A DNA stretch of 33,769 nt from Candidatus Eiseniibacteriota bacterium (GTDB taxonomy: Bacteria; Eisenbacteria; RBG-16-71-46; CAZAMP01). Below, in pieces: positions 627-15,408 of this stretch; positions within the stretch are counted from its first letter, which is position 1, and each line of letters begins with the position of its first letter. The DNA is taken from positions 1-33,769 of the forward strand of contig CBDCYW010000006.1 in the NCBI GenBank assembly GCA_965224245.1, written 5' to 3'. The notes under the pieces were generated by a model. It was not told where the DNA came from and did not search any database. It saw only the letters and a program-made list of their open reading frames with translations. The position numbers were made by a program, and so were the translations under genes.

Positions 627-1296
627 CGTCTCGCTCGGGTAAGAACTCGAAGACCGTATCCAGGGCGTCCACGGAGGCGCCTTGCGCGCCGTACGACGCC
701 ATTTCCTGTGGCCAGCCCAACGCCTCGTCCCCGAGGAGTTCCTCCATGAGGTACAGCGGCCGACCGAGGCGGAGCGCTTCCCAGCCCTGGTGAATGGTCC
801 CGCTCTTCCCCCCTGCCTCGACGATCACGGTCGCGTGCGAGACGAGCGCCATCGTCCGGTTGCGCATCGGGAAGTTCTTGCGGCTGGCCGGTGCGCCCGG
901 TGGGAACTGGGAGACGGCCAGGTGCTCCGCCATGATGCGCTCCTGCAGCACCCTGTTCTCCGGTGGATACGTCCGATCGAGCGGCGTGCCGAGCACGGCG
1001 ATCGTGCGCCCACCGGCAGCCATCGCCCCTTCGTGCGCGGCGGTGTCGATCCCGGCGGCAAGCCCACTCACGACGACCGCGCCGCGGGCCACCAAACGCT
1101 CGGCAAGTGTTCGTGCGCGCTCCACGCCAGCCGCTGATGCGCGCCGCGAGCCGACGATGGACACCCGGGCCCCCTGGCGGAGAACACCGATGTCGCCCGC
1201 TACGAACAACGAGCGCGGCGCGTTCTTCTGCTCGACTTGGTTCAGCGGACCGAGCAGCGTCTCTGGCGTGTGTTCCTCAAACTGTCTCGTCATCAT
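601..1296 (-). CDS. dprA: DprA/Smf-like protein (Rossmann/SLOG core only), paired with PRTase
   Basis: Motifs SIVGSRRAS, VSGLAAGIDTAAH, IAVLGT, FPMRNRTM, VEAGGKSGT; 231 aa, lacking the extra N- and C-terminal domains of competence DprA; overlaps the PRTase start. Confidence 0.9.
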   Translation of the reverse strand: MMTRQFEEHTPETLLGPLNQVEQKNAPRSLFVAGDIGVLRQGARVSIVGSRRASAAGVERARTLAERLVARGAVVVSGLAAGIDTAAHEGAMAAGGRTIAVLGTPLDRTYPPENRVLQERIMAEHLAVSQFPPGAPASRKNFPMRNRTMALVSHATVIVEAGGKSGTIHQGWEALRLGRPLYLMEELLGDEALGWPQEMASYGAQGASVDALDTVFEFLPERDVAAARLTL

Positions 1297-1483
1297 GGGT
1301 CTTCCTCACTTGGTTTCATAGTGCCCCATCTTCGCTGTTTCGGGAAGTCCCGCGTCAAGAGCCCATAAGCAACCTCCGGATCCTGGTCGAAAGCTACTTG
1401 GAGGCTTATACATACCCCCGAAGCCCGTCGACGACCGGCAGCATCGCTCCGCATCTTCGACCCCTCATGATGGAGGTCGCCAG

Positions 1484-2497
1484 ATGACCCTCTTCCGCCT
1501 GCACGCGTACAGCGTCAGTCCTCAGCGGACCACCGATGCCGTCGTCGAGCCGCCCGGCGGCGCCGTGAATGTCACGGCGGAGTTGCGGCAGGTCCTTGAG
1601 GAGAACACTCGCCGCGCTCGTTTTCCGAGCTGTACGGAGGTCCACTTCAACGTGGACGCTACCACCCGCACGACCCAGACGCGCGACGACATCATGTCCT
1701 ACGCGTTCGGCGAATCCGCCACGGCCAAGGCCGCTGCGGTGCGACTCGCGACGCGGCTCGCCGGGGCGATGGATTTGCGCTCTACGCACGCCCTCTTTGT
1801 TCTCGCCGCCGATCGCGACGACGACCGTCGCCGTGTCTCACTCTGGACGTTCCCGCAGGACGACGCGTTCCAGTTCCGGAACCGGCGTTCCGGCCCTACG
1901 ATCCGGTTGCTCACCGACGTGTTCAGCCAGTCTTCCCGTCTTCGCAAAGGCGCGCAGTTTCATGGTCGCAAGCTGCGGAACCACTTCCTCACCGGCCGCG
2001 TCCTCGACTTCCAGGCAAGCCACCCGTTTCGGGCCGTCGCGGACTTCTGGATTACGCACTTCCTCGATTGCTCACTCGCGATGGGCAACGATAGCGGCAC
2101 GAAGCTCCTTGCACGCACCCTCCAGAAGGCGCACCAAACGTGTGAGGATCTGGTACAGCGGGAGCAGCTGTACCTCGCGGCGATGCAGATGCGACGATCT
2201 ACTCGGAAGCGCATCTCCCTCTTTGGCTTCGCTGATCGGTACCTCGACGGCGACGCGAAGGCCACGTTTCTTGGCGCCGCGCCGACTCCGGATGCGATCC
2301 ACGCCGCCTTCGAGTTTCAGACGTCGGTGTTCGACGAGGTCATCAGCTTCCGGATCTTCGAGCTCGACAACGGCGTGTACGTCTCCTCTCCCCTGACGGA
2401 GATCGGAGAGTCCGTGAAGGTCACTGGAATCGCAGAGAAGAAGCTCTCGTGCAAAGGGACCATCGTCGACGAGAAGATGAGGACCCGACATGCCTGA
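1484..2497 (+). CDS. 337-aa protein, probable YejK/NdpA (NA37) nucleoid-associated-family homolog
   Basis: GGAGG RBS upstream; segment VADFWITHFLDC and C-terminus EIGESVKV..LSCKGT resemble YejK as I recall it, and the size matches. The CDS is solid; the family is tentative. Confidence 0.6.
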   Translation: MTLFRLHAYSVSPQRTTDAVVEPPGGAVNVTAELRQVLEENTRRARFPSCTEVHFNVDATTRTTQTRDDIMSYAFGESATAKAAAVRLATRLAGAMDLRSTHALFVLAADRDDDRRRVSLWTFPQDDAFQFRNRRSGPTIRLLTDVFSQSSRLRKGAQFHGRKLRNHFLTGRVLDFQASHPFRAVADFWITHFLDCSLAMGNDSGTKLLARTLQKAHQTCEDLVQREQLYLAAMQMRRSTRKRISLFGFADRYLDGDAKATFLGAAPTPDAIHAAFEFQTSVFDEVISFRIFELDNGVYVSSPLTEIGESVKVTGIAEKKLSCKGTIVDEKMRTRHA

Positions 2498-3110
2498 AGA
2501 CGACCTGAAGCGCCGGTACGAAGCTCGCCTCTCGGTGCTCGAGGAGCTCCAGACCCGGCTCGATGCGGAGACCCAGGACGCACTCCGCGGTCTCCCTCAC
2601 ATCGATCGCATCGCCTTCCGGGTCAAAGGTCCAGACTCGTTTGCCACCAAGGCGCACGATCCGGAGACGGATCCGCCGTACACGGATCCACTCGTCGAGA
2701 TCGAGGACCAGGTTGCCGGTCGTGTGATCGTCTTCTTCCTCGACGACATCGAACGCGTCGAGGATCGTCTCCGCGGAACGTTCTCGACCGTCGAGCGCGC
2801 TCACCGCCACCCTGAGCGGGACGAAGAGTTCGGGTACGAGTCTCGGCACTTCATCTACTCCATCCCGCCTCACCTCACTCCGAGCGGGTGGACTGATCGT
2901 GACGATGTTCCCACGACCTTCGAGCTGCAGATCCGCACGATCATGATGCACGCGTACGCGGAGCCGCAGCATAACCTCGCGTACAAGAGCGCGACCGACC
3001 TCCCGCAGGACATTCGGCGCGAGCTCGCGTGGATTGCGGCTTCAGCCTGGGGCGCCGACCAGGCCTACGAGCGCATACGGAAGTGGCACACGGACTCGAA
3101 TCACGACTAA
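2490..3110 (+). CDS. RelA/SpoT-family small alarmone synthetase-like nucleotidyltransferase (single domain)
   Basis: Synthetase motifs RVKGPDSF.K, EDQVAGRVI, GYESRH, FELQIRT, HNLAYK; 8-nt overlap with the upstream gene. Confidence 0.88.
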   Translation: MPEDDLKRRYEARLSVLEELQTRLDAETQDALRGLPHIDRIAFRVKGPDSFATKAHDPETDPPYTDPLVEIEDQVAGRVIVFFLDDIERVEDRLRGTFSTVERAHRHPERDEEFGYESRHFIYSIPPHLTPSGWTDRDDVPTTFELQIRTIMMHAYAEPQHNLAYKSATDLPQDIRRELAWIAASAWGADQAYERIRKWHTDSNHD

Positions 3111-3129
3111 CGTTCGCGTCCGAGCCCAC

Positions 3130-3149
3130 GAGTTTCGCCGGCGAAACTC
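3130..3149. promoter_or_regulatory. Perfect 20-bp palindrome GAGTTTCGCCGGCGAAACTC, candidate parS centromere site 1
   Basis: Perfect palindrome upstream of the par operon; the same 20-mer occurs inside parB (4929-4948). Confidence 0.65.
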
Positions 3150-3232
3150 ACCACGAAGCCGCTGCGAATGCGTGCGATTCGTGGAGCGCGAAGAAGAAAA
3201 TCGCCCTCGCCAGACCTGCGCCGCTTTCCGAC

Positions 3233-3241
3233 TTATCCACA
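3233..3241 (+). promoter_or_regulatory. Consensus DnaA box TTATCCACA
   Basis: Exact match to the canonical 9-mer, in an intergenic region of a GC-rich replicon. Confidence 0.6.
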
Positions 3242-3242
3242 G

Positions 3243-3272
3243 TTGCCGTCACATGCCCCTAGATGCTATGGT
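3243..3272 (+). promoter_or_regulatory. Candidate sigma70 promoter of the HTH-parA-parB operon
   Basis: TTGCCG (3243-3248), 18-nt spacer, extended -10 TG-c-TATGGT (3264-3272), 35 nt before ATG 3308. Confidence 0.45.
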
Positions 3273-3307
3273 GCCCGCCAGGGACTACCCACGGGGGCCG
3301 TAACCAC

Positions 3308-3538
3308 ATGACCAACAAGAAGTTGCACAGCACTACCGAGGTCGCAGAGCGCGCCGGCGTGAGCCGGGACACGCTGCTGCGCTGGCTCAAAGCCGGGAAG
3401 ATCCCGGAGCCAGGTCGCAATCGAAACGGCTGGCGAGTCTTCACCGAGAAGGAAGCGCGGGCGGTTGAGGAGTACGCCAACCGCTACACTCCGAGCCCGC
3501 GCCGGCGTCAGGGGCATCTCTTTCGTAAGGCGAACTAG
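3308..3538 (+). CDS. MerR/excisionase-type helix-turn-helix DNA-binding protein (76 aa)
   Basis: STTEVAERAGVSRDTLLRWLKAGKIPEPGRNRNGWRVFT; ends 2 nt before parA. Start chosen at ATG 3308 rather than 3263. Confidence 0.85.
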   Translation: MTNKKLHSTTEVAERAGVSRDTLLRWLKAGKIPEPGRNRNGWRVFTEKEARAVEEYANRYTPSPRRRQGHLFRKAN

Positions 3539-3540
3539 CG

Positions 3541-4332
3541 ATGTCCCCCCGCATCATCGCGGTCACCAACAACAAGGGTGGCGTCGGAAAGACGCACACG
3601 GTCTTTCACCTCTCCGGCGCGTTCGCGGAGCAAGGGAAGCGGGTCCTCGTCGTGGACCTCGACCCGCAGGGCAACCTCACGAGTCTCCTGCTCCCGAACC
3701 GCGAGCGCCCCGGCACGCTCTTCGACGTCCTCGTGGAAGACGTCCCGCTCGCGCAGACGGTACACGCCACCGAGTTCGACGGCATCTCCATCGTGCCGTC
3801 GACGCCGCAGCTCGAGAACCTCGACGCGTTCCTCCAGAACGAGCCTGACGCGCAGATCCGGCTCGCCGACGCGCTACAGGAACTCGCGCACGGCGACGCC
3901 GAGCCGTTCGACGTGATTCTCCTCGACTGCCCGCCGAGCCTCGCGCTCACGACGCGGAGCGCGCTCGCCGCGGCGCGGCACGTCCTGATCCCGCTCGAAG
4001 CGGACAAGTTCTCGGTCGAAGGCCTCGACCGGCTCGTCCGCGCGATCCAGTCGCTCAAGCGAGCAGTGAACCCGCACCTCGAGATCGCCGGGATCCTCAT
4101 CAGCCTCTTCAAGGAGCGGCGGACGATCGAGAACCTCTACGCCGAAGCTCTCGGTGACCGGGCCATCCACGTCTTCGAAACGCGCATCAAGGACTCGACC
4201 AAGTACCGGGAGGCGATCACCGCCCGGCGGCCCATCACGCACTACAAGCCGACGTCGGAGTTCGCCGACGCCTTCCGGAACCTCACCCGTGAACTCGAGC
4301 AGGCCTATGCCACCCGAACCCAAGAAGCGTAA
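3541..4332 (+). CDS. parA: ParA/Soj-family partition ATPase
   Basis: Deviant Walker A KGGVGKT, VDLDPQGN, Walker B ILLDCPPSL. Confidence 0.95.
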   Translation: MSPRIIAVTNNKGGVGKTHTVFHLSGAFAEQGKRVLVVDLDPQGNLTSLLLPNRERPGTLFDVLVEDVPLAQTVHATEFDGISIVPSTPQLENLDAFLQNEPDAQIRLADALQELAHGDAEPFDVILLDCPPSLALTTRSALAAARHVLIPLEADKFSVEGLDRLVRAIQSLKRAVNPHLEIAGILISLFKERRTIENLYAEALGDRAIHVFETRIKDSTKYREAITARRPITHYKPTSEFADAFRNLTRELEQAYATRTQEA

Positions 4333-5239
4333 GACCGCCCGGGACCGCCTGGGGGGCATGGTCGACAAGACCGTCAGCGTCCTCGACGAGGAACGGAGCA
4401 TCGAGGAGCCGGCCTTCGAGCACACGATCGAGAGCGCGGAAGTGCGGGCCGCGCTCCGACGGAACCGGCAGTACGGCGACCTGCCGCTCAAGGTCATCGA
4501 GGCCGACCCGGAGCAGGTCCGGAAGGTCGACACCACGAGCGAGGCGTTCGCGGAGTTCGCCGGGTCCATCCGCGAGCACGGCGTGCTCGAACCCATCACG
4601 GTCCGCTGGATCGCCGAGCGCGAGGTCTTCCAGGTCGTGACCGGCGAGCGCCGGTTCCGGGCGGCCCAGGTCGTCGGGCTGGAGATGATCCCCGCCATCG
4701 TCCGCGAGTTGAGCGACACCACGAAGGCGATCCACCAGCTCGTCGAGAACATCCAGCGCGAGGACATGAACCCCATCGACGAGGCCAAGGCCTTCCGGCG
4801 CTACCTCGCCGCCACCGGCGGCACGCAGGAGGCCCTCGCCAAGGCGGTGGGGAAGAGCAAGGCCTACGTTTCGCAAATCATGAGCCTCCTCGAGAAGCTC
4901 ACCCGGGAGGAGCAGGACGACCTCTCGGGAGTTTCGCCGGCGAAACTCCCCGGGAAATCGCTGATTCTAGAGGCGATCCGGATCCCCGACCCGGAAATTC
5001 GGCGGTCGGTCCTCCGCGGCGAGCTCACCCGGGACCAGGCACGGAAGCAGGTCCCCCGGCCTTCGAAGGCCCCGCAGCGCGGGCGCCCGAAGCATGCCTC
5101 AAAGAGCTTCAGCGTCGACGACCCACCAGCCACCGTGACCGTCCGGCTGAAGACCGGGACCCTGGACGAGGATGCCGTCCTCCGGGCGATCCAGGCCGCT
5201 CTGCGGCAGCAGCGGAAGCAGTCGAAGAGCCAGTCATGA
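4307..5239 (+). CDS. parB: ParB/Spo0J-family partition CTPase with HTH (~310 aa)
   Basis: SIREHGVLEPITVR, VVTGERRFRAA (GxxR motif), ENIQREDMNPIDEA, HTH TQEALAKAVGKSKAYVSQ; start ATG 4307 overlaps the parA end. Confidence 0.95.
   Translation: MPPEPKKRKTARDRLGGMVDKTVSVLDEERSIEEPAFEHTIESAEVRAALRRNRQYGDLPLKVIEADPEQVRKVDTTSEAFAEFAGSIREHGVLEPITVRWIAEREVFQVVTGERRFRAAQVVGLEMIPAIVRELSDTTKAIHQLVENIQREDMNPIDEAKAFRRYLAATGGTQEALAKAVGKSKAYVSQIMSLLEKLTREEQDDLSGVSPAKLPGKSLILEAIRIPDPEIRRSVLRGELTRDQARKQVPRPSKAPQRGRPKHASKSFSVDDPPATVTVRLKTGTLDEDAVLRAIQAALRQQRKQSKSQS
4927..4950. promoter_or_regulatory. 24-bp palindrome GGGAGTTTCGCCGGCGAAACTCCC inside parB, candidate parS site 2
   Basis: Perfect palindrome sharing a 20-bp core with 3130-3149. 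Confidence 0.65.
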
Positions 5240-5252
5240 CCCCGATCCGAGC

Positions 5253-5362
5253 AAGGGCTGTTGTGTTAGTAGAAAAGGGCTGTCGTGTTAGAAAACAAGG
5301 GCTGTTGTGGAAGCGAATCAGGGCTGTCGTGTTAGAAAACAAGGGCTGTTGTGTCAGAAAAT
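5253..5362 (+). repeat. Five tandem 22-bp iterons (consensus AAGGGCTGTYGTGTTAGAAAAC), probable oriV
   Basis: Units start at 5253, 5275, 5297, 5319 and 5341 with exact 22-bp period and no spacers; followed by an AT-rich tract and the rep gene. Confidence 0.9.
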
Positions 5363-5389
5363 CGCAGCTAAGCCGCTGCCACTAGCCAA

Positions 5390-5430
5390 GTTATCGCATG
5401 CCTAATATTCTTACTGTATTAACTTACTCA
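5390..5430. other. AT-rich tract next to the iterons, candidate DNA-unwinding element
   Basis: cctaatattcttactgtattaacttact in an otherwise GC-rich replicon; followed by IR CACACAC/GTGTGTG (5431-5437/5447-5453). Confidence 0.6.
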
Positions 5431-5482
5431 CACACACGGGAAGCAGGTGTGTGCGTTGACTGATCACGAAGACCCCAGACCC

Positions 5483-7126
5483 ATGCCGCAGCATCCGAAG
5501 GAGGATCGAACCCACGTCGTCGTCGCGAACCCCCTGGAGGGGATCTCGCCGAAGCTCATGCGCGAGGCAAACCTCCTGCGCCTCCCGACCTTTCCGCTCC
5601 AGAAGCGTCTCTCGTCCCGCTTCCGTTCCGACAACCACTCCGGGTTCTTCCGGCACCAGATCGAACGGCCGTCGCGGCCCGACGGCAAGGCGGGGCCGGC
5701 GGTCTGGCGCGTCGAGGGACCGGTCCGGCCAGCGGACAAGTCCACGTTCGTCGGCGTCGAGTCCTACCTCCGCCACCGCTTCCGGGACGCGGCCGTGCCG
5801 CGGCTCGTCGAGGTCGAGAAGATCGGACCGGTGCTGCGCCACATGGGCATTCGCGTGCCCGGCAAGCGCGACATCCAGGGCTTCGCCGAGAGCGTCCACA
5901 GGATCGTCGGCACGACCCTGTACTCCGCTGGCTTCTGGAGGGGGTTCCGGGCCGACCGCGAGAGCGGCCGCGAGGAGGAGTTCTACGTGACGGCGAGCTT
6001 CCACCTCTACGACGCCGCGTACTTCAAGGGCGACCCGCTTCCCGACGGATCCTACCTGGCCCGGGGCATGGTGCTGCGGTTGAGCGACGAGTACCTCGCG
6101 AGCCTGAACACGGCCAAGGTGATCCCGCTCGACTACGACCTCTGGATGAGCCTCCGCAGCACGTCCTCGCCGGGGAAGAAGGGGCTCGAGGGGAACTACG
6201 TCGCCCGCCGGCTCCTCGAGATCCTCTCGCCGAAGTTCTACGGCATGGTCCTCTCGCACGGCACGCACCTGCAGCAGGACTACGACGAGCTCTGCGAGTA
6301 CCTGCCGCTCGAACCCCGAGGCTACCTGTCCCAGGCGAAGGCCAGCCTCCAGACGGCCCACGAGTACCTCGTGAAGCGGCGCTTCCTCGGCCAGGAGCCC
6401 GAGTGGGAGTGGACCGCCCAGCGCCGGCGGCTGGTATACGCGCCCGGCGACCGGTACTACGATTTCCACCACGGCCAGCAGATCCGGCTCTTCGAGGGTG
6501 GTGAGGAGGCCGGCGGGACCGAGGAGAAACCCCGCACCGCGGCTGCGACCGAGCAGCACCCGGAGCCCGTGCTCGTGGACGAGCTCGTCCGCCGGGGCTT
6601 CGAGCCGCGCCAGGACGCCGAGACCTACGTGCGGACGCAGGCCGAGGAAGTCCGCCGGCAGCTCCCCTGGTTCGACTACGAGCTCGAGCGCCAGGGCGAT
6701 CGGATCCAGAGCCCGGGCGCCTGGCTTCGGAAGCGGATCGACCGCCGCATGGGCAAGCCCAGGGGCTACGTCAGCCCCGAGGAGGTCGCGGCGAAGCGCC
6801 GGCGAGTGGAAGCCGATCGAGACGCGAAGCGCCGGGCCGCCGCCGAGGAGGACGACCGTCGGGTGAACTGGTGGAAGTACCAGACCCCGGAGGAGAAGGC
6901 GCGGTCCTACATCGACGGGGTGTGGCTGTTCCGCTGGAAGAACAAGCACGGCTACGACCGCGAACCGAGCCAAGCCGAAAGGGACGAGGCCTACCAGACC
7001 CAGATTCGCAAGCTCGAAGTCGAGGCCAAGGCCCAACGGGCCGCGTACCGGCAAGAAACTGGCCAGGTTCCACCAGAGCCACCAGGACGCACGGAGAGCG
7101 CCGTTTCGGTTCCGGACAGGGGTTGA
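5483..7126 (+). CDS. Plasmid replication initiator protein (RepA/RPA- or TrfA-like winged-helix type, divergent)
   Basis: Directly downstream of the iterons; N-terminal EANLLRLPTFPL resembles the E.NL..P.F.L start of iteron Rep initiators; strong GC3 bias. Start (5447 GTG vs 5483 ATG) uncertain. Confidence 0.7.
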   Translation: MPQHPKEDRTHVVVANPLEGISPKLMREANLLRLPTFPLQKRLSSRFRSDNHSGFFRHQIERPSRPDGKAGPAVWRVEGPVRPADKSTFVGVESYLRHRFRDAAVPRLVEVEKIGPVLRHMGIRVPGKRDIQGFAESVHRIVGTTLYSAGFWRGFRADRESGREEEFYVTASFHLYDAAYFKGDPLPDGSYLARGMVLRLSDEYLASLNTAKVIPLDYDLWMSLRSTSSPGKKGLEGNYVARRLLEILSPKFYGMVLSHGTHLQQDYDELCEYLPLEPRGYLSQAKASLQTAHEYLVKRRFLGQEPEWEWTAQRRRLVYAPGDRYYDFHHGQQIRLFEGGEEAGGTEEKPRTAAATEQHPEPVLVDELVRRGFEPRQDAETYVRTQAEEVRRQLPWFDYELERQGDRIQSPGAWLRKRIDRRMGKPRGYVSPEEVAAKRRRVEADRDAKRRAAAEEDDRRVNWWKYQTPEEKARSYIDGVWLFRWKNKHGYDREPSQAERDEAYQTQIRKLEVEAKAQRAAYRQETGQVPPEPPGRTESAVSVPDRG

Positions 7127-7208
7127 CCCGTCCTGGACCCCGAAACGCGCTCCTGGACCCCTCCACGCAACGCAGCGAAGCCCTCACGGATCCACCACGC
7201 CTCACCCC

Positions 7209-7409
7209 ATGTCCCTCGATGCCTACACCGCATGGATCTTCACGGTCGGCGCTCTGACTGGTCTCGGTGTGGTCGCCTTGGGCTACGCCACCTACCAGCA
7301 GGTCTGGATCCTGCGCTATCTGCGCCGCCGGCGCCGAGGCCGTCGGCACCGGGGAGGAGAGGGTTGGTTCGGCCCACCCCGCCCTCCAGACAGAACGCGT
7401 CTCGGCTAG
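7209..7409 (+). CDS. Small single-pass membrane protein (66 aa)
   Basis: Hydrophobic stretch AWIFTVGALTGLGVVALGYA followed by an Arg-rich tail (positive-inside pattern). Confidence 0.5.
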   Translation: MSLDAYTAWIFTVGALTGLGVVALGYATYQQVWILRYLRRRRRGRRHRGGEGWFGPPRPPDRTRLG

Positions 7410-8449
7410 AGACGCCCGCGTGAGCGGTCAGCCCAAGCCAACGACAACCACCGGAGCTGCCCGTGACCGGGTAGGACGCTTCGGACTGTCCACCGGACAC
7501 TCCGGCGCGTTCCTCGGAGTCGGAGGCGAACCACGGACCCGGAAACGCCGGCGTTTGCCGGCGAACCCTCGTGGCCGAGGGTCGAGGGAACCAAGGCATC
7601 GCCCTCGTTCCTCGGGCTCCAGCGGTTGCTCGCCTGCGGCTCGCGTTGGCCTCCCTCCGCTGTCTGCCTGGACGCCCCGACGTGCCACTGGCACCTCGGG
7701 TCGTGCTGCGGCCTCCAGCTTCCGGTCGGCTTCGTTGCGCGCGCTCGCCCTCCGCCGGGCTTCAGGGAAACCGATTTTGCGTCCATCGCACCCTTCGGGG
7801 TACGATGAAAAACTGGACACCAGGTCGGCGCTGCACTGGAATGCAGCTCTCCCTGATTTCCAGTTTTTGCGCTCGTAACCTCGCTATGCAAAATAGATTT
7901 CCCTTTCGCCCGTCTCCGGGCCTCGTCCGAGCCCCTCAACACGTTCCCCCAAGCACACGAGCAGATCGTCGTGCGCATGGGGACCCCGCACGTGTTGAGG
8001 CGGCGTCGCCTCGCTCCTGGCCCGGCGCCGCTGGCGCCGCGCGGAGCGCGTCTCCTTGGGTCTTCGCCCCCACGGGCTGCCTCTGGTGGTGGCAGCGGAC
8101 GTGGGGGCTGCGACCTGCTCGGACGAGGCCCGGAGACCTCAAACCGAGACGGACGCCGGGTCCCGCCGGCCTTCGGCCGCCCGGCGTCCTAGACCTCGCC
8201 GGCGCCCCTTGGCGGGGCTTGCTCGGTCACTCGGTTTGGGCCTCGGGCGAGCGCGCGCGGAATGCGGTTGTCCCGCGCGATGGCGCGGGACCGGTTGCTC
8301 TCTTGGACCCCACCCTTGCCGCTGCGACCGCGTGCCCTCGGCGGCTGACGGATCGTTCCCGGTGGGGGGGAGCGCCCCTGCGGAGCGAAGCGACGGTTGC
8401 CCAGGGGCGCGGTGGGTGGTACGACGGAGGCCCGGCCGTCGTGGCCGGG
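7397..8449. other. ~1-kb element of nested inverted repeats (structured ncRNA or ssDNA origin/oriT region)
   Basis: Stems read directly: 7737-7750/8245-8258 (14 bp perfect), 7912-7932/8117-8137 (21 bp perfect), 7764-7780/7888-7904 (15/17), 7808-7817/7859-7868, 7934-7944/7990-8000, 8066-8074/8100-8108, 8138-8148/8230-8240, 8151-8160/8180-8189, 8372-8380/8402-8410; CTTCGG loops at 7793 and 8171. Confidence 0.75.
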
Positions 8450-8457
8450 TGAGCACT

Positions 8458-9507
8458 ATGCAAGGCAAACCTCGGATGCAAACGCTGATCGATCTTCGCC
8501 GCGGGGAGTCCCGCCGGGGCCGCATTCCGAAGGACGAACTCCCGCCCTGGGAGCCGGGCACGAGCGCCTTCCGGGTGCTCCGGTTCCTCCGGGATTACCG
8601 GTACCTCACGAGCGAGCTCGCCGGGATCCTCTACGAGGCCCACCATGGGCGGGGTCGGTACCAGGTCCGGAACCAGCTCACGTTGCTGGAGCGGTACGGG
8701 TACGCGAAGCGGCACCGGCGGCCCGCGGAGGTCGGGTCGAACCAGTACGTGTACACGCTGTCCGTGGAGGGCGGGCACCTCGTCATCGACGACAAGGACT
8801 GGTCGGCCGAGCGCCGGAAGGTCTACAACCGGGCCACGACGAAGTCGGACTACGAGCACGCCCTGGCCGTGACCTTCCTCCAGATCCTCTGGGACCTCGG
8901 GAGCCGCGAGCATGAGGATCTGTTCAGCACCGAGCTCTACTGGTCAGACAAGCACGGGGACGACCGGGAGATCACCAACGCCTTCGAGGCGACCGTCGAG
9001 GGTGATCCGGTCCGGATTCACCCCGATACGACGGTCCTCATTCGGCACGGCCGGCGGGACTACGTCCGGCCGATCTTCTTCGAGATCGAGCGATCGCGGA
9101 AGAACGACGAGCGGACCGCGAAGCGGTTCCGCGCGTACGCCGACCTCGTCACGGGCGGGCGGAAGGCCGTGGATGGGGTCTTCCAGAGGCACATGGGGCT
9201 CCGCCCGGAGCCCGGGATGGTCGTCTTCATCGCCGGCGACAGCGACCACGCGGCCCAGCTCTGGAAGCTCGCCCGCCGGCTCCTCGAGGTGGATCGTGTC
9301 GGGCACCGCAAGCTCCCCGAGTTCTGGTTCACGTCGCTTGACGAGCTGATCGAGGAGGAGACTGAAACCGTCGACGTCGGGACGTCCCGTAGCGGGGTTC
9401 CGCGCCGGCGGACCCGCATGACGCGGCGGATCATCCCGCCGCCGGCGTTCTTCGCCGAGGAGCTCTTCGTAAACCTCCACGGAAAGCGCGGTCGCCTCGT
9501 GGTGTGA
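8458..9507 (+). CDS. Replication-relaxation (Replic_Relax)-family protein: winged-helix + PD-(D/E)XK-like nuclease
   Basis: N-terminal wHTH (LRFLRDYRYLTSE..LTLLERYGY..YVYTLSVEG), then EHALAV, IHPDT, FFEIERS..KRFRAY. Start ATG 8458 (or 8476); the upstream in-frame extension to 8056 is low-complexity. Confidence 0.75.
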   Translation: MQGKPRMQTLIDLRRGESRRGRIPKDELPPWEPGTSAFRVLRFLRDYRYLTSELAGILYEAHHGRGRYQVRNQLTLLERYGYAKRHRRPAEVGSNQYVYTLSVEGGHLVIDDKDWSAERRKVYNRATTKSDYEHALAVTFLQILWDLGSREHEDLFSTELYWSDKHGDDREITNAFEATVEGDPVRIHPDTTVLIRHGRRDYVRPIFFEIERSRKNDERTAKRFRAYADLVTGGRKAVDGVFQRHMGLRPEPGMVVFIAGDSDHAAQLWKLARRLLEVDRVGHRKLPEFWFTSLDELIEEETETVDVGTSRSGVPRRRTRMTRRIIPPPAFFAEELFVNLHGKRGRLVV

Positions 9508-9549
9508 ACCCACAAGGCACGTCTTCCATCGTGCTAGGGGTATCGGGCG

Positions 9550-10908
9550 ATGAGCCGCGACTACGATGTCTTCATCAGTTACGCACACGAGGATAGTGGG
9601 TTCGTCGAGATGCTCGCGGAGGATCTCGCCAAGTGCGGTTTGCGGGTGTGGCGTGACACAGAACAGATCGTCGTCGGAGACTATCTATACAAGAAGCTTC
9701 AGGAGGGCCTATCCTGGTCCAAGCTGATGGTCTGCATTGTTTCGGAAGCCTACCTTAAGTCGGCTTGGTGCGAACACGAACGTGTCGACCGCATGTATCG
9801 AGAGGTAGAAGCATCGCGGATCGAAGTCCTACCAATCCTCCTCGACGATTCTCCCATTCGTGAAATCTTTCCAGGGAAGATCTACTGCGATTTCAGAGAC
9901 ATGCACCACTATCACGAAGCGGTGGATCGGCTCCTTGACGCCCTGTTCACTCACATCGGTCAGAGGAGCGATCTGACCCCGTACTTTGACAACACCGTGC
10001 GTTTCAACGTGTGGACGCCGCAACGGGCTTCTGTTTGGTACTCATGCAGGAAGCAGTTCTGGTACGAGTTCATCGCGGCGGAGGTGATCTACGGTCGGAC
10101 TGGTGGTGCCAAGTCTCGCCTGAAGGCCTTGAAGGAGTCGAGGGCTGTACGGCAGCTAATAGGTTACAAGGTGCGTGCTGAGATGAAGCGCTACCTCAGG
10201 GGGTGGGCAGACACGGAACCTGGTCAACTGGCTGATCGCATCCGACAGTTCGTTAGAGATCAACACGGCCCTACGCCTACGCCAGTGATGGAGTTCAACA
10301 ACGGGATTCCGGTCACGCCGGAGCAGCTTCAGAACTGGATCGAAAGAGGCGTGGAAAGGTATCGCACGTGGCGGGACTCCCTCGCATCTCGTTACTCCGA
10401 CTCCAACGGGTGGTCCACCGACAGGGCCCCGTTTTACAGCCCGCGCTACCAGTTCACGACGCCAAACTTCAAAATCGACGTGGGCTACACTCCCTTCGCT
10501 TGGACCGAGGACGAATCGACGGTTCTCTTTCTTGAAAACCGTCGCACGGACCGAACTTCTTCGCGGGCGAAGCGCCGGTTTAGGCTTCACGCTCTCGCGC
10601 TTTCACAACGCCGGTCCAAGACAGCGCGAGAGATCGCGGCACAGATCCTCTTTCTCGATGATGGCGTGGTAGAAGAAATGGTCTGCGAACCCTCGGAACT
10701 CGGGCAAGTGCAGCGAGAGACGCTGGCCATCGCCGAGCGCTATCATCGTGATCGCGTGTCGCGGCAACCAATTCAAGCTGACCTAGAACAGGTGAAGTGC
10801 CGCACCTGCAAGTACCTTAGCGTTTGCCATGAGGGTCTAGCCTTTCTCGATCTGCCAGTGAGTGGTGATGTGATTCCGCGCGAGGAGAATCAGACCCCGT
10901 TGTTCTGA
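9550..10908 (+). CDS. TIR domain fused to a Cas4/AddB-like (PDDEXK_1) Fe-S domain
   Basis: TIR: YDVFISYAHED, GLRVWRD, SEAYLKSAWCEHE, VLPILLDD. C-terminal domain: SCRKQFWYEF and CRTCKYLSVC (1+3 Cys pattern of Cas4/AddB). Confidence 0.8.
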   Translation: MSRDYDVFISYAHEDSGFVEMLAEDLAKCGLRVWRDTEQIVVGDYLYKKLQEGLSWSKLMVCIVSEAYLKSAWCEHERVDRMYREVEASRIEVLPILLDDSPIREIFPGKIYCDFRDMHHYHEAVDRLLDALFTHIGQRSDLTPYFDNTVRFNVWTPQRASVWYSCRKQFWYEFIAAEVIYGRTGGAKSRLKALKESRAVRQLIGYKVRAEMKRYLRGWADTEPGQLADRIRQFVRDQHGPTPTPVMEFNNGIPVTPEQLQNWIERGVERYRTWRDSLASRYSDSNGWSTDRAPFYSPRYQFTTPNFKIDVGYTPFAWTEDESTVLFLENRRTDRTSSRAKRRFRLHALALSQRRSKTAREIAAQILFLDDGVVEEMVCEPSELGQVQRETLAIAERYHRDRVSRQPIQADLEQVKCRTCKYLSVCHEGLAFLDLPVSGDVIPREENQTPLF

Positions 10909-11331
10909 GACGTACCGGGCGGCGAGCGGATGAGCGCGTAGGCCCGGTTGTGCTATTCTGCTCTGTACAGCCATGCAGCGTCGCGCCCGCCCCGCTTCGG
11001 CAACAGCGGATTTGGCGCGGTCACGTGGCACCCCCTGGTACGGGGTGGTGCGTGCGCGCAGTCACGAGTACCAGTCGTGGCCCGCGTGGGCGATGCCGGT
11101 TTGCTGTCGTACATTGGCCCCGCTCTTCGACGGCGGGGCCTTGTCGTCAGCTACCACTCGGGAAGGCGAAGGAAATCACCTCGCACTAGCCCCGGAAAGC
11201 GATTGACGAACTCCCCTCGAGATCCTCGCTAGCCCTCTTCGTCCCCCTCTTCCGCTCTCCCCGATCTGCTCCGCGCGCCCGTGCTCACCGGGGCGCGCGC
11301 TGACTCCTCAAAGATCAAGGAGGTCCGTGCC

Positions 11332-11616
11332 GTGGTAGCTCCACGAGACCGGTCCCGATTCCGCCTCGGGCAGACGGTCATCACCCGCGGTGCCCTGGGC
11401 ACGCTCTCCGGCGACGACGTCGCGACGGCGATGCTCCGTCACGCTCGTGGTGACTGGGGCGAGCTCGTCGCCGAGGACCGGGCCGCGAACGACCGGGCCC
11501 TTGAGAAAGGCGGCCGTCTGGTCTCCGCCTACCGGACCGCCCGGGGCACCAAGTTCTGGATCATCACCGAGGCCGACCGCTCGGTGACCACGGTACTCCT
11601 GCCCGAGGAGTACTGA
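11332..11616 (+). CDS. Conserved small plasmid/ICE protein (94 aa; RH..GDWG...W(I/V)ITE.DRS.TT.LLP.EY type)
   Basis: AAGGAGGT RBS at 11317-11324 then GTG 11332; sequence pattern is one I recognise from widespread plasmid hypothetical proteins. Confidence 0.8.
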   Translation: MVAPRDRSRFRLGQTVITRGALGTLSGDDVATAMLRHARGDWGELVAEDRAANDRALEKGGRLVSAYRTARGTKFWIITEADRSVTTVLLPEEY

Positions 11617-11749
11617 TCCGGCCGCAATCCCGTAACTGACGATTCGTCGTCCGACCCTGACATCATCCCGACCCGCGATCGTTCGTCTCCGGGCACGTAT
11701 GCGCGTCGCCTGGAGCCCGAACTGCGTTCGGGTCAGAGAGGAGCTGCTC

Positions 11750-12190
11750 GTGTCCGACGAGCCCCGCTACCGCGTCGGTGAAGCCGGAACGCCGACCTAC
11801 GAGGCGCCGCCCACGAGACCGGTGACCGAACCCGAGCGTGTCTCCACGCTCTGCCGAGGCCTGGCCCGGCTGCGGGTCGAGGTGTTCCAGGTGCTCCTGC
11901 TCGATGCCCGGCACCACCTGATCCGCAAGGTCACGGTGAGCCGCGGCAGTCTCAACGCCAGCATCGTTCATCCCAGGGAAGTGTTCCGGCCGGCCATCGT
12001 GGCCTCGGCCGGCGCGATCCTCCTGGTGCACAACCACCCGTCTGGGCACCCGGAACCGTCCCGGGACGACCTCGAACTCACGAAGCGCCTGGTGCGCGCC
12101 GGCGAGCTTCTCGGGATCCCGGTGCTCGACCACATCATCATCGTGAAGTCCGGGTACCTCTCGCTTCGCCGCGAGGGGCACCTCGGGTGA
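11750..12190 (+). CDS. radC: RadC-like JAB/MPN-domain protein (short mobile-element type)
   Basis: VHPREVF, HNHPSG, PSRDD, VLDHIII; GAGAGGAG RBS before GTG 11750. Confidence 0.92.
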   Translation: MSDEPRYRVGEAGTPTYEAPPTRPVTEPERVSTLCRGLARLRVEVFQVLLLDARHHLIRKVTVSRGSLNASIVHPREVFRPAIVASAGAILLVHNHPSGHPEPSRDDLELTKRLVRAGELLGIPVLDHIIIVKSGYLSLRREGHLG

Positions 12191-12198
12191 ATCCAACC

Positions 12199-12233
12199 GC
12201 GGTCGTCCGTTCCAACGGGCGACCGCTCTTCTC
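12199..12233 (+). terminator. Probable intrinsic terminator after radC
   Basis: Hairpin GCGGTCGTCCGTT-cc-AACGGGCGACCGC (one G-U) followed by TCTTCTC. Confidence 0.5.
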
Positions 12234-12287
12234 ATAGCGGTCAATGCACCGACCGTGCTAGCATTGAATCCGATAAGGAGGTCTGCG

Positions 12288-12557
12288 ATGCGTATCAATC
12301 ATGCAGTGGAGTTCGAGTTCTCCGGATGTGAGTACCATCCTCCCGCTCCTGCCGGCGTAGCCTTCGATCTCGAAATGGCTAAGCGCCTCCTCGGGGAGGC
12401 TGGGCATGTCGACCCATCACAGTACCAACTCAACATGTATCGGGATCTGTTGTTGGAGTTCGCTCGCTCGCTCGCAAAGGACTTCAGGCGGCTTGAGCCT
12501 ACGATTCAAGAGGACGTAGTTCGCCGTAAGGGTACGAAGGTCGCGCCACCAGCTTGA
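12288..12557 (+). CDS. Hypothetical protein (89 aa)
   Basis: TAAGGAGG RBS before ATG 12288; no recognisable motif. Confidence 0.6.
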   Translation: MRINHAVEFEFSGCEYHPPAPAGVAFDLEMAKRLLGEAGHVDPSQYQLNMYRDLLLEFARSLAKDFRRLEPTIQEDVVRRKGTKVAPPA

Positions 12558-12591: not shown

Positions 12592-13986
12592 GTGGATCGC
12601 ACATTCACACTCGCGGTCCAGCGGCTCGCTGGCTTTCCAGGCACTGTTGCCGAGTGGAATAGCCTCGACTCCGCAAGCCAATCTGTTTCGCTACTGAATG
12701 TCGTCGAGGCGATTGGATCACTTGGGATCGGTTCGGCGCATCCTGCTGTCAGTTTCCTTTCGATTCTCTCTCGTTGGACACTTAGGCTGCGAGGGGCCGG
12801 TACGCGAGAGAGCGCTATGCTACGGCTTCGTCAGAAGCTAGCCCTTCAAGAGATCGTCGACTTCGACGATGTTGCGTTTGTTCACGCCGTTCGTGATCAC
12901 CCTCCGACCTTCATTGGAACCCTGGTTCTACTCGACACACTGCTTGCCCCCGCCATCCAAGAACGGCAGCTTGTAACACGATCGTATCTTGAAGATACTT
13001 TTCGGCTCGTGCTGGATCTGCTCCGCGCCGATCCGTCAATTCGGCCCGAGGACGCCATCTACCTCGAGCTTGTGATTCGGAAGGGTGGGTTTCCCAGAGA
13101 CGGCCTGACGAGCATTGCGTCTCCTCCGGAATTGGTTCGCGCTGTACTAGAGGGCGCTGGTCCTGGCCGTTTTCGTTCTCTTGCGTTCACAACCGAGTGT
13201 CTAGGTCGCATCGGAGATTGCCCAAAGCTCTTCTCTCAGGCTCTTCATCAGCTTCTTCATTTCGCCGAACAAGACTACCTTGTCCCCGGGGATGGCTCGC
13301 AGCAGGATCACGCCTTCCCCCCGAGTTTGAAATGCTCGGATGAGTTGGTCGCTGTCTACAACGCCTGCCTCCTACTCCGATCAGCTCGTTTCGCGCTGAA
13401 TCCAGACTCACTATCACGCCTCAGGACCTCTGTTCTCGCGAGCATGTTCTATCGTGGACAACGCTTTGACTCCCAAGCCGTCACGATCGCAGAGCAGATA
13501 GCCGAGATCATCAGCTCGGCAAGCAAACGAAACCGTCACCTTGGGCCCTCTGCTCTGGAAGATGATTGGCGGGATACTTTGGCCTGGGGCCTTGAGCAGC
13601 GTGGCTACAAGGTCCACGCCGAGGTTACGGAAACACATGGCTGCCGTCTGGACCTTCTCGTCAGTTCCTTCGAGAACGCTGATCCCATCTGTATCGAGCT
13701 GAAGCGCCTCAGCTACGCTCGCCAGCAGCGGGAACAGCTTGCGCAGCAGTTGCGCCGGTACGCTCGCGCAACAGATCGACATCTCGTTCTTGTTCTGATC
13801 AAAGACGTGCCCGGTCTCGTTGATGGTGAGGTTCCCAACGACGCCATCTTCGAAGACTTCTTCTTCGCGTCGGCGCCGATTGAAATAAGCCCGACGACAT
13901 CCTTGTGGTTTGCCCTCCTTCGCCCCGGCCTGCGCCTTGACCGCGATGTTTCTGTCTCACTCGTGCTACATGACGTGCTCGAGTAA
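12592..13986 (+). CDS. 464-aa protein with a helical N-terminal region and C-terminal PD-(D/E)XK nuclease domain
   Basis: EDDWRDTL...VHAEV...RLDLLV...ICIELKR catalytic pattern; lower GC than the backbone. Start uncertain. Confidence 0.65.
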   Translation: MDRTFTLAVQRLAGFPGTVAEWNSLDSASQSVSLLNVVEAIGSLGIGSAHPAVSFLSILSRWTLRLRGAGTRESAMLRLRQKLALQEIVDFDDVAFVHAVRDHPPTFIGTLVLLDTLLAPAIQERQLVTRSYLEDTFRLVLDLLRADPSIRPEDAIYLELVIRKGGFPRDGLTSIASPPELVRAVLEGAGPGRFRSLAFTTECLGRIGDCPKLFSQALHQLLHFAEQDYLVPGDGSQQDHAFPPSLKCSDELVAVYNACLLLRSARFALNPDSLSRLRTSVLASMFYRGQRFDSQAVTIAEQIAEIISSASKRNRHLGPSALEDDWRDTLAWGLEQRGYKVHAEVTETHGCRLDLLVSSFENADPICIELKRLSYARQQREQLAQQLRRYARATDRHLVLVLIKDVPGLVDGEVPNDAIFEDFFFASAPIEISPTTSLWFALLRPGLRLDRDVSVSLVLHDVLE

Positions 13987-14170: not shown

Positions 14171-15307
14171 TCACTTGATCACCTCGAACATCACTGGGTC
14201 GATCGCATAGTAGAACTCGCCGCTGTCGACATTCTGCAGTCGTATGAGACCGAGCTTTTCAAGAAAGTCAACGTTCTCGTCGATCGGAAAGATCCACGTG
14301 GATCGTAGTCTCGTTGAGCGACAACGCTCTACAGCCTCACGCAGGATCGAAAATTGCTTCGATGTCAGCATCTCTTCAAGCTGAGTCGGGACTAGGCCAT
14401 GTCGCTCAACGGTGTCTAGAGTGTCGTGCATTTCGGCGGACTGACGGATGGAACGAATGAGTGTTTCCACATACGCAGGAAACATCAGATGCGCAGGCGA
14501 CTCCGTAGCGAGCTGGTCCGTTCCGAAGATACACCAGTACTTGCGGTCGATGATCCGTGGTCGTCTGGAGCCAAGCGCGCCAGTTGCTCGCCACTGATTC
14601 TCAATCCTTGCCCAGAAATCCATGTTGGCATCATTGACGTCAAACCTCGCGTTCCCTGCAGCGTCGATTTCCCGGACGATCTGTAGAAGGGAAGGACCAC
14701 CTGCCGGTTTGACCGGTAAGGGGGTGAGGATGATGGCTTGTCGCGGAAGAGTCGCTTCGTAGCGAGCGAGCAGCTCATCATACGGGATGATGTGACATCC
14801 AGGTGGTACGAGATCTTGCAGCTGAGCTGTACCCGTATCCGAGCGAGACTTTGAGGCTAACTCGTTGGTCAGGCCCGCAATGATAAAGAGGTAGCTCCGA
14901 TTGCCGACGATGACGTTCGTCCGGAATCGAGAGACCAGCTCGCGTTCAAGGTCACGGGCATAGACAGTTGCCTGAGTGATGGCGGTAGTGGTGTCACGCG
15001 TCAGGATGATCAAGCCCTTTCTCGGCTCAGTGATGAGCCTTGTGTCAGGGCGCTTTAGCTCAATGACTCCAAACGAGGAAATCACGGAAGTCTCGCGCGG
15101 GTAGAAGACGAAATCGGGTTCACTTCTTCCTGGTCTGCCAAGTGGTCGAATATCATGTGATTCAACACGCAATGGAAGGGAACGAGAAAGGAGGTAAGGG
15201 CATCGCGTGAAGAGTCCTTGAAAATCCTTCTCCGAAGATGGACCAGTGAGCAGCCGCTCGAATTGCCGTCGGGCCTCTTCTAGTTCCTCATGTGTTGGCT
15301 GTTCCAC
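14171..15307 (-). CDS. Shedu (SduA/DUF4263)-like anti-phage nuclease with C-terminal extension
   Basis: SEKDFQGLFTRCPYLL, EPDFVF, VIELKRP, TAITQATVY, FIIAG, IIPYDELL match the DUF4263 pattern. Likely start GTG 15307 with GGAGG upstream (ORF is open to 15406). Confidence 0.75.
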   Translation of the reverse strand: MEQPTHEELEEARRQFERLLTGPSSEKDFQGLFTRCPYLLSRSLPLRVESHDIRPLGRPGRSEPDFVFYPRETSVISSFGVIELKRPDTRLITEPRKGLIILTRDTTTAITQATVYARDLERELVSRFRTNVIVGNRSYLFIIAGLTNELASKSRSDTGTAQLQDLVPPGCHIIPYDELLARYEATLPRQAIILTPLPVKPAGGPSLLQIVREIDAAGNARFDVNDANMDFWARIENQWRATGALGSRRPRIIDRKYWCIFGTDQLATESPAHLMFPAYVETLIRSIRQSAEMHDTLDTVERHGLVPTQLEEMLTSKQFSILREAVERCRSTRLRSTWIFPIDENVDFLEKLGLIRLQNVDSGEFYYAIDPVMFEVIK

Positions 15308-15376
15308 GCCTAGCCTGCCTCCCGCCTCCTGCACGTCTGTCGACCTGCAGGCGTTGGGGCTTTGTTCCTCTTCCCA

Positions 15377-15408
15377 GGATGGCATACTTACGTAAGAAAG
15401 TGCCATCC
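15377..15408. other. 32-bp inverted-repeat site GGATGGCATACTT-ACGTAA-GAAAGTGCCATCC, candidate tyrosine-recombinase crossover site
   Basis: Outer 8-bp arms perfectly inverted, AT-rich centre, lox/dif-like geometry, immediately upstream of the recombinase; GGATGGCA recurs at 15461-15468. Confidence 0.55.

Follow-up and report, generated by a model that had tools for sequence, protein, structure and literature searches.

A three-domain folded element upstream of a MOBC-type relaxase gene: a candidate origin of transfer on a 21.3-kb plasmid of Candidatus Eiseniibacteriota

Introduction

Why should a small bacterial plasmid devote its largest non-coding stretch to an array of nested palindromes? 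The question is raised by a 33769-nt contig from a Candidatus Eiseniibacteriota bacterium (contig C7 of a 6.9-Mb genome in 27 contigs; "the window" hereafter denotes this whole stretch of DNA at its full length), in which positions 7397-8449 lie directly upstream of a gene, 8458-9507, coding for a protein with a Replic_Relax domain. An earlier note on this DNA had described these 1053 nt as a hierarchically folded non-coding element of about 1 kb, and had offered two readings of it: a large non-coding RNA (ncRNA) partnering the adjacent protein, or a single-strand origin or origin of transfer (oriT). The analysis presented here favors the second of these, with the first emerging as less supported. 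We propose that the core of the element, 7737-8258, is probably the oriT of a mobilisable 21.3-kb plasmid, i.e., the cis site of the MOBC-type relaxase encoded downstream, and that it acts as folded DNA.

The plasmid itself can be read directly from the assembly. Along its whole length the contig repeats a unit of 21314 nt exactly (0 mismatches at this period); therefore, it represents a circular plasmid or episome of 21.3 kb that was assembled past its own start and read 1.58 times.

A 522-nt core of three abutting domains

Positions 7410-8457 are non-coding, as the earlier note had held, and form the largest such stretch of the plasmid: third-position GC shows no frame preference over ~7130-8450, as against 0.90-0.98 in the adjoining genes. 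Long open reading frames (ORFs) do span the gap, which led us to consider a protein-coding region; however, since the codon-position GC signal is absent from them, they are by-products of the 70% GC content, and this candidate was rejected. Minimum-energy folds, both of the whole stretch and of the core taken separately, give a 522-nt structure in which an outer stem (P1) closes three domains that abut each other. Its parts, none of which is assigned to a strand, and the gene that follows it are:

7737-7750, unstranded: 5' arm of P1, pairing with 8245-8258 (perfect 14-bp inverted repeat)
7757-7911, unstranded: domain A, with three hairpins, the AT-richest part, carrying the conserved box TTT[C/G]CAGTTT (from the folds)
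7912-8137, unstranded: domain B, a long hairpin with a perfect 21-bp closing stem (7912-7932/8117-8137) and an interior of very variable length (from the inverted-repeat search)
8138-8240, unstranded: domain C, a base helix CAAACCGAG/CTCGGTTTG around two hairpins, the best conserved part (from the alignments)
8245-8258, unstranded: 3' arm of P1 (perfect 14-bp inverted repeat)
8458-9507, forward strand: MOBC-type relaxase gene (Replic_Relax, PF13814)

Further inverted repeats lie within the core at 7934-7944/7990-8000, 8151-8160/8180-8189 and 7808-7824/7852-7868. Indeed, every helix that the earlier note had named was recovered by the repeat search and the folds, and the hairpins that it had placed around the core (7397-7415, 7676-7700, 8270-8291, 8372-8410 and 8431-8449) reappeared in the minimum-energy folds.

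The stability of the core stands far apart from that of its surroundings. Its z-scores are -12.2 (RNA parameters, plus strand), -13.3 (RNA parameters, minus strand) and -11.2 (DNA parameters, plus strand), with 0/100 shuffles as good in each case, such that the core outdoes all 100 of its shuffled controls on either strand. As background, 68 windows of 300 nt from elsewhere on the plasmid have a mean z of -0.32 (standard deviation 1.17, minimum -3.5). The flanks are far weaker: the left one (7397-7736) has a z of -4.1, albeit again with 0/100 shuffles as good, and the right one (8259-8457) a z of -2.6. Hence, the exceptional object is the 522-nt core and not the whole 1053 nt; the proposed folded element of about 1 kb stands for 7737-8258 (z -11.2 to -13.3), its flanks being ordinary to moderately structured.

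As a separate observation, 8117-8131 in the 3' arm of stem B shows 87% complementarity to a second segment as well, 8238-8252 in the stretch between domain C and P1, which 7918-7932 in turn resembles. RNAalifold, when run on an alignment of domain C, paired this arm with the C-to-P1 junction, which we treated as an artefact of the omitted 5' arm. The complementarity may reflect an alternative pairing or be a mere by-product.

Homologous copies and the covariation of their stems

The relaxase has few relatives: 9 were recovered among 5.8 billion proteins, at 47-54% identity and mostly on contigs of 4-25 kb. Four loci from JGI metagenomes (L003-L006) were used, of which L005 is cut by its contig end and provides a partial copy of the element. 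A DNA pattern scan of GTDB species genomes returned three stretches, one of which is a copy on a 17.7-kb contig of a Polyangiaceae metagenome-assembled genome (L012); the other two (L011 and L013) contain none of the other motifs and were set aside as chance matches. Finally, a covariance model (R1) comprising domain C and the 3' arm of P1 found two distant copies, one on another contig (C26) of the same genome as the window (E 2e-8) and one in a genome of the same class (G090, E 9e-12). The former is placed as follows:

contig C26, 40478-41039 (= L020 4478-5039): diverged copy of the element, found by model R1

This amounts to seven complete copies, the window and six others, of 407-601 nt, plus the partial one. 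Searched against 101 genomes of the family to which the L012 genome belongs, model R1 matched that genome alone. The relaxase protein has no match in PLSDB, IMG/VR has no relative by protein or by DNA pattern, and peptide patterns found none in the GTDB representative genomes. More copies of the element probably exist on those Logan contigs that encode relatives of the relaxase.

Each of the seven complete copies, when folded singly, shows P1 closing domains A, B and C, with z-scores from -7.6 to -12.2. In a MAFFT alignment of five copies RNAalifold predicts 100 pairs, 29 of which are changed on both sides with pairing retained; column shuffles give 11.8 +/- 2.4 such double changes (0/500 reach 29), and structures slid by 1-3 columns give 2-7. 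Moreover, 89.6% of the cells of this alignment are paired versus 81.5% in the shuffles. The seven-copy alignment, although poorer, behaves alike, with 17/47 pairs double-changed as against 7.8 +/- 1.8 in shuffles (0/500). These compensatory changes across the copies indicate that the pairing itself is under selection; thus, what the earlier note had surmised from a single sequence, namely selection on the fold, is well supported by covariation among five and seven homologues.

The changes can be followed stem by stem. Across the seven copies, P1 shows the pair types CG/AU and CG/UA/GC at two positions, its arms being GCTCGCCC/GGGCGAGC in the window, GCCCGCCC/GGGCGGGC in L004 and GATCGCCC/GGGCGATC in L006. 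Past the conserved base of stem B, three pairs occur as TCG/CGA, AAG/CTT or AAA/TTT, and in L003 and L006 both sides of this stem are altered at positions 12-14. Stem B is of unrelated sequence in the two distant copies (C26 and G090), yet forms a perfect stem of ~18 bp at the same place. The box TTT[C/G]CAGTTT of domain A is found in 5/5 close copies in the alignments; as a regular expression it matches L012 and neither L011 nor L013.

That the element might be a repeated mobile element (MITE) was considered and rejected: within the genome the 1053-nt stretch matches its own contig alone, and the copy on C26 shares the gene context and is homologous but diverged.

The adjacent protein and its family

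The protein encoded by 8458-9507 matches PF13814 (Replic_Relax) at 55.2 bits against a cut-off of 25.3 (E 1.3e-14), as do the relaxases of L003, L012, C26 and G090. PF13814 is equated with the MOBC family, that of TraX of pAD1 and MobC of CloDF13, in Table 2 of PMC5357655. As portrayed in PMC12857230 and PMC6736028, this family is restriction-endonuclease-like, with an N-terminal winged helix and a DEE metal site, and the passages of these two sources that deal with it report no covalent relaxase-DNA intermediate. According to the account in PMC12857230, TraX binds five direct repeats 70-120 bp from nic. The assignment of the family to the PD-(D/E)XK fold is due to Steczkiewicz et al. 2012 (PMC3424549).

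Residues E127, D184, E203, E205 and K209 are invariant in 10/10 aligned relatives and constitute the putative catalytic acidic and Lys residues. In an AlphaFold model (predicted local distance difference test score, pLDDT, 74) the N-terminal winged helix resembles PadR/MarR regulators (E 2e-3 to 2e-2), and the rest forms an alpha/beta domain whose closest PD-(D/E)XK structures, 1xmx, 1fok, 8q41 and 7lw7, are weak matches (E 5e-3 to 2e-2). Foldseek returned no match to the model at E <= 0.001, and a PDB sequence search nothing below E 0.15. The Pfam match, the invariant residues and the weak structural matches concur with the winged helix-turn-helix and PD-(D/E)XK architecture earlier ascribed to this neighbor, and by these features we identify it as a MOBC-family relaxase. 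As an aside, L006 codes for a second Replic_Relax protein (10731-11657, E 6.8e-20), ~4 kb past the first.

Genomic linkage of the element

The element lies upstream of a Replic_Relax gene on the same strand in 7/7 complete loci, and also in the cut locus L005. The distance is ~200 nt in the window, L003, L004, L006 and L012, and ~5 kb in C26 and G090. Matches of the covariance model are confined to Replic_Relax loci, even where the relaxases are only 28-36% identical. In the host phylum the relaxase is present in 2/206 genomes, and of the 151 genomes searched with the element model these two alone gave matches, all of them at the relaxase loci.

Two of the relatives have a coupling protein gene in the neighborhood. 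In G090 the element is followed by ssb, two ORFs and the genes for a type IV coupling protein, Replic_Relax and an integrase, which, judging from these genes, is the layout of an integrative mobilisable element with our element heading the DNA-transfer operon. In L003 a type IV coupling protein gene (TrwB_AAD_bind, TraG-D_C) is situated 2 kb downstream of the relaxase. The order in C26 is ParA, ParB, HTH_36 protein, element, RadC, CBASS-type cyclase (on the other strand), integrase and Replic_Relax.

On its other side the element faces replication genes. The local order parA, parB, rep, small membrane ORF, element, relaxase is the same in the window, L003 and L006. The 559-residue Rep of the window has no Pfam match, and a word-based search returned only itself; a profile built from it and two syntenic homologues, however, recovers 2388 proteins, and 19/24 sampled ones contain PF10134 (RPA), some also with Rep3_N or TrfA. 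On this basis we interpret it as a divergent replication initiator, a winged-helix Rep of the RPA/TrfA-like type. The Rep beside the element is RPA-like in the window, L003 and L006 and of the HTH_36 type in L004 and C26, the two types being 16% identical. The retention of the element beside two unrelated types of Rep argues against a Rep-specific vegetative origin (oriV), and these gene neighborhoods point to an element that travels with the relaxase family rather than with the type of Rep.

DNA or RNA, and which strand

Several properties of the fold bear on the nature of the folding molecule. In the five-copy alignment 398/470 cells are Watson-Crick pairs (about 85%), 23 are G-T and 15 A-C, and the share of G-U pairs in single folds is 2-9% on either strand. 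The wobble asymmetry gives no answer as to the strand, with G-T at 23 versus A-C at 15 and mixed per-sequence counts, in agreement with the earlier remark that the wobble pairs point to both strands. Paired positions outconserve unpaired ones, with 87/200 columns invariant among the former versus 25/157 among the latter, and the terminal loops vary greatly in length between the copies.

Other measures are asymmetric. Unpaired bases on the relaxase-sense strand are pyrimidine-rich in 7/7 copies (56-121 pyrimidines versus 28-62 purines), and the strand complementary to the relaxase gene folds more stably in 7/7 copies with DNA parameters and in 6/7 with RNA parameters. The statement that the strand could not be decided therefore holds for the wobble pairs and gives way in part elsewhere, with all seven copies favoring the relaxase-complement strand by DNA folding and loop composition. 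The cUUCGg loops, cited earlier as a sign of RNA, do occur on the plus strand; however, the other strand reads C-GAA-G, which we take to be the loop of the extra-stable DNA mini-hairpin cited alongside them.

Database searches for an RNA were uniformly negative: Rfam gave 0 matches at the gathering score over the whole window and no family even at E <= 1 over 7100-8500, and there is neither a tRNA nor a tmRNA. A public index of sequencing runs held no RNA run containing the stretch and one DNA run with 0.32 of its words, a result that is silent on expression.

The element as a probable origin of transfer

We favor the oriT reading because of the MOBC relaxase next door, the linkage of the element to that family, the transfer genes in its relatives and its resemblance to our MOBC comparison, the oriT region of the pAD1-like E. 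faecalis V583 plasmid pTEF1. That it would act as DNA is suggested by the ~85% Watson-Crick pairs, the equal wobble on both strands, stems that are better conserved than loops, and the empty Rfam result. In the survey of bioRxiv 10.1101/2024.01.30.577996, the parts on oriT architecture describe large non-coding regions just upstream of the relaxase (median 628 bp), DNA secondary structure, and oriT definitions ranging from 31 to about 350 nt.

Briefly, the following mechanism may be advanced. The winged helix of the relaxase would dock on plasmid DNA, possibly at the plasmid-specific repeats that flank the core, and its nuclease domain would nick one strand in or beside the conserved three-way junction formed by P1 and the bases of stem B and domain C. 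Nested palindromes would matter because DNA folds on itself, either extruded in the supercoiled donor plasmid or, more likely, as the single-stranded DNA being transferred. A second recognition of the fold might then serve termination and rejoining, and the fold may also assist priming in the recipient. In oriT-proximal transfer operons the template strand is the transferred strand; by analogy, the folded, transferred strand here would be the complement of the relaxase gene. As the plasmid has neither coupling-protein nor mating-pore genes by Pfam, its transfer would need a helper.

That lack of coupling and pore genes also counts against the proposal, as do several further points. The core, at 407-601 nt and with three branches, goes beyond both the 142 nt of pTEF1 and the 31-350 nt of oriT definitions, and an oriT alone does not obviously need so large a fold. 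No nick site is readable from the sequence. When the relaxase family is aligned with the pTEF1 TraX homologue by hhalign, the winged helix alone aligns (E 0.13), and blastn of 7700-8300 against 72,556 PLSDB plasmids gives one 42-nt chance match and nothing pTEF1-like. The flanking short repeats are clear in 3/6 loci and are arranged unlike those of pTEF1. In the window, L003, L004, L006 and C26 the element is directly past the parA-parB-rep block, a linkage as tight as that to the relaxase. Lastly, the consistent strand asymmetry, together with terminator-like hairpins on the minus strand in 3/5 loci, would also suit a transcript.

Alternative readings

The G090 copy, directly upstream of ssb, raises the prospect that the transferred or displaced strand carries here a promoter or priming site working as single-stranded DNA, akin to Frpo/ssi or to a lagging-strand origin, with the nick elsewhere or at the edge of the element. 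The sections of PMC11541004 on Frpo describe them as immediately upstream of SSB genes in leading regions and as acting by folding single-stranded DNA; the Frpo regions searched for there are of 50-350 bp. With its three domains, the present fold is unlike the known Frpo, which are single long hairpins. The more stable folding of the template strand of the downstream genes, noted above for all seven copies, would also suit such a site, as would the AT-richer conserved box of domain A. Sigma-70-like hexamers are present in domain A of L003 (10/12 matches) and L006 (9/12), in different places and by a consensus that may not be that of the hosts, but the window, L004 and L012 yielded none. The downstream genes, RadC and a methylase among them, are of kinds typical of early-entry regions; should the nick lie within the element and the template strand be transferred, however, the geometry implies that these genes would enter last. 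All considered, we deem such a site unlikely.

A transcribed, large structured ncRNA of 0.4-0.6 kb, either as a partner or regulator of the relaxase or as a replication or copy-number RNA, would account for the strong conserved fold and its covariation. Unpaired bases of the minus strand are ~68% A+G, a purine richness typical of structured RNAs, and RNA parameters give this strand the lower energy in all but one of the copies; to the left of the element, minus-strand terminator-like hairpins are found in the window, L003 and L004. Plus-strand signs of a transcript are the cUUCGg-type loops and a hairpin past the outer stem in every copy read, followed by a T-run in L003. It is precisely here that these strand cues contradict each other: the UUCG loops and the trailing hairpin point to plus, and the loop composition, energy and left terminators to minus. 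Further, a conserved promoter was not found in 5 loci, Rfam is empty, and G-U pairs are few and equal on both strands. Stems better conserved than loops and junctions, with terminal loops free to vary in length, are the opposite of what is seen in most functional RNAs, and the perfect 21-, 14-, 11- and 10-bp stems resemble DNA palindromes, as in pTEF1. Hence, a transcript of this kind appears improbable to us.

The element could alternatively be part of an oriV served by the upstream Rep. It is directly past the parA-parB-rep block in the five loci named above, it occupies the plasmid's largest non-coding stretch with domain A as the AT-richest part, and two tandem repeats are found past the rep stop codon. 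Nevertheless, the core is conserved beside the RPA-like and HTH_36-type initiators despite their low identity, a repeat search found no iteron array within it, and every locus that has it also has Replic_Relax; in G090 it stands at the head of an ssb-coupling protein-relaxase-integrase module, where the contig ends 1 kb on and a rep gene is possible. This makes an oriV a remote prospect, though a single element could combine oriT, priming or promoter and oriV functions. Two further candidates, an integrase att site and a dimer-resolution site, were rejected, as the size and the three-domain fold do not fit.

Flanks, short repeats and the plasmid backbone

Around the core, the gap and its immediate surroundings contain:

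7131-7168, forward strand: two direct repeats with TGGACCCC at 7134 and 7154 (from the repeat search)
7209-7409, forward strand: small 66-codon ORF whose product has a single predicted membrane helix and a tail rich in Arg (from the ORF list)
7397-7415, reverse strand: hairpin scored as an intrinsic terminator, and this on the minus strand alone (from the terminator scan)
7416-7736, unstranded: left flank, with several hairpins and moderately structured (from the fold of 7397-7736)
8259-8457, unstranded: right flank, with a purine-rich spacer, a GC hairpin at 8270-8291 and hairpins at 8372-8410 and 8431-8449 (from the fold and alignment)

The 66-codon membrane-type ORF is probably a gene: small ORFs, each with one hydrophobic helix, occupy the same place between rep and element in L003 (2862-3086), L006 (4925-5092) and L012 (2157-2354), with a clear identity of 41% between the window and L012 and a weak one of 19-39% with the others. 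In the flanks, the last 20 nt before the outer stem are common to the window and the C26 copy, and the hairpin after P1 (8270-8291 in the window) recurs in all copies read.

A third copy of TGGACCCC is found at 8304-8311, beyond the core. In L003 and L012 the corresponding two places hold other short motifs, peculiar to each: GGATATCC in 4-5 copies in the former (2853, 2875, 3715, 3726, 3737) and TCGCGAA in 5 copies in the latter (2141, 2272, 3226, 3261); nothing clear of this kind was seen in L004, L006 or L005. These plasmid-specific motifs flank the block of small ORF plus element, just past the rep stop and just before the relaxase start. Two of the three are palindromic and would suit operator or parS-type sites.

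The backbone genes and the second reading of the element are:

3541-4332: ParA gene (Pfam)
4154-5239: ParB gene (Pfam)
5447-7126, forward strand: replication initiator gene of 559 residues, the last of the parA-parB-rep block (from profile relatives)
11699-12190: RadC gene (Pfam)
28711-29763, unstranded: second copy of the 7397-8449 stretch, 100% identical

The last of these exists because the contig repeats the 21314-nt plasmid unit, and for no other reason; features from 1 to 12455 likewise occur twice in the window. A RadC-like JAB gene lies a few kb past the element in the window as well as in L003 (9319-9765) and L020 (6412-6699).

By Pfam, the plasmid codes for DprA, a RelA/SpoT-like protein, a MerR-type regulator, ParA, ParB, Replic_Relax, RadC, a TIR plus PD-(D/E)XK protein, a Shedu-type protein, a tyrosine recombinase, a large N6-methylase and an SMC/Rad50-like ATPase. 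Its cargo looks like a defense set, the Pfam-based candidates being the TIR plus PD-(D/E)XK fusion (9550-10908), a weak PDDEXK_3 protein (12592-13986), a Shedu SduA_C protein (14171-15406), the 898-residue N6-methylase (15932-18628), the SMC/Rad50-like ATPase (18791-21292) and a small RelA/SpoT-like synthetase (2490-3110). The C26 copy resides on a 58.7-kb contig with a CBASS-type SMODS cyclase. Separately, the DprA gene (601-1296, minus strand) adjoins that of a 213-residue protein (21299-21940, minus strand) with a faint ComF/GntX "DNA utilisation" likeness (E 0.009, far under the cut-off); both are of the DNA-uptake type, here carried by a plasmid.

Implications

If the oriT reading is true, it supplies an annotation rule, namely that a nested palindrome upstream of a PF13814 gene marks an oriT, and no new principle. 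MOBC is the least understood family of relaxases, and its treatment in PMC12857230 presents DNA recruitment and rejoining as an open question. Against this backdrop, the cis site of the element family is notable for its very large size, its abundant covariation, its clear strand bias and its division into three domains that can be separated. As its stems are individually open to compensatory mutation, it provides a good substrate for asking whether MOBC enzymes read the shape of DNA. It also marks small plasmids and islands with defense-type cargo in poorly known environmental phyla, with nothing similar in PLSDB.

A bolder version, which we consider doubtful, is that the three-domain fold of the relaxase-complement strand, be it the transferred single-stranded DNA or a 0.5-kb RNA, is recognized by its shape, with the PD-(D/E)XK relaxase acting at the three-way junction in the manner of junction-resolving nucleases. 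Were this so, it would account for the finding, cutting and rejoining of the substrate by MOBC relaxases, for which no covalent DNA intermediate has been reported, and the element would rank among the largest conserved architectures of single-stranded DNA (or plasmid RNA) known.

Comparison with known systems

Single-strand origins (sso) and phage minus-strand origins are extensively folded, orientation-dependent single-stranded DNA. The sso, compared by description, belong to small rolling-circle replicons with an HUH Rep, whereas the present element sits beside ParAB and a winged-helix initiator. Known Frpo are single long hairpins; each rebuilds a -35 and a -10, in contrast to the three domains seen here, in which conserved boxes of that kind were not found. 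The likeness to Frpo and ssi lies in a function that would be exerted via folded single-stranded plasmid DNA, as set out in the relevant part of PMC11541004, and in the position directly upstream of ssb in G090.

CloDF13, with its MobC and oriT, shares the relaxase family and is likewise a small mobilisable plasmid needing the mating pore of a helper, as far as its portrayal in PMC6736028 goes. The annotation of the CloDF13 record that we used contains no gene named mobC.

A known precedent is the MOBC prototype, the oriT2-TraX system of the Enterococcus faecalis plasmid pAD1, with homologues in pTEF1 and pAM373. The pTEF1 relaxase, like that of the window, is a PF13814 protein (E 2e-6), and 699 nt separate its gene from that of the coupling protein. 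This gap, which we take to be the region where the oriT2 of pAD1 has been described, contains five direct repeats with 11-nt spacing and two perfect palindromes, the 25-bp one nested within the 18-bp one and the pair covering 142 nt in total, and folds as DNA with a z of -11.5. Francia and Clewell reportedly located the pAD1 nick within its palindrome in 2002. The differences are considerable: pTEF1 has a single, unbranched 142-nt hairpin of two nested stems, three to four times smaller than the present element, whose outer stem closes three domains over 407-601 nt; DNA sequence similarity was not found and the proteins align over the winged helix alone; the five evenly spaced repeats are without a clear counterpart here; and the hosts are Bacillota there and uncultured, high-GC environmental bacteria here. 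The likenesses, on the other hand, extend to the whole plan of the locus, with a non-coding gap upstream of the relaxase, nested perfect palindromes, short repeats nearby in some of the copies, a fold far beyond that of shuffles, and, in two relatives, a linked coupling protein with the same set of domains. Hence, what the plasmid carries is most likely an oversized, branched form of a site of known type, and not a new RNA.

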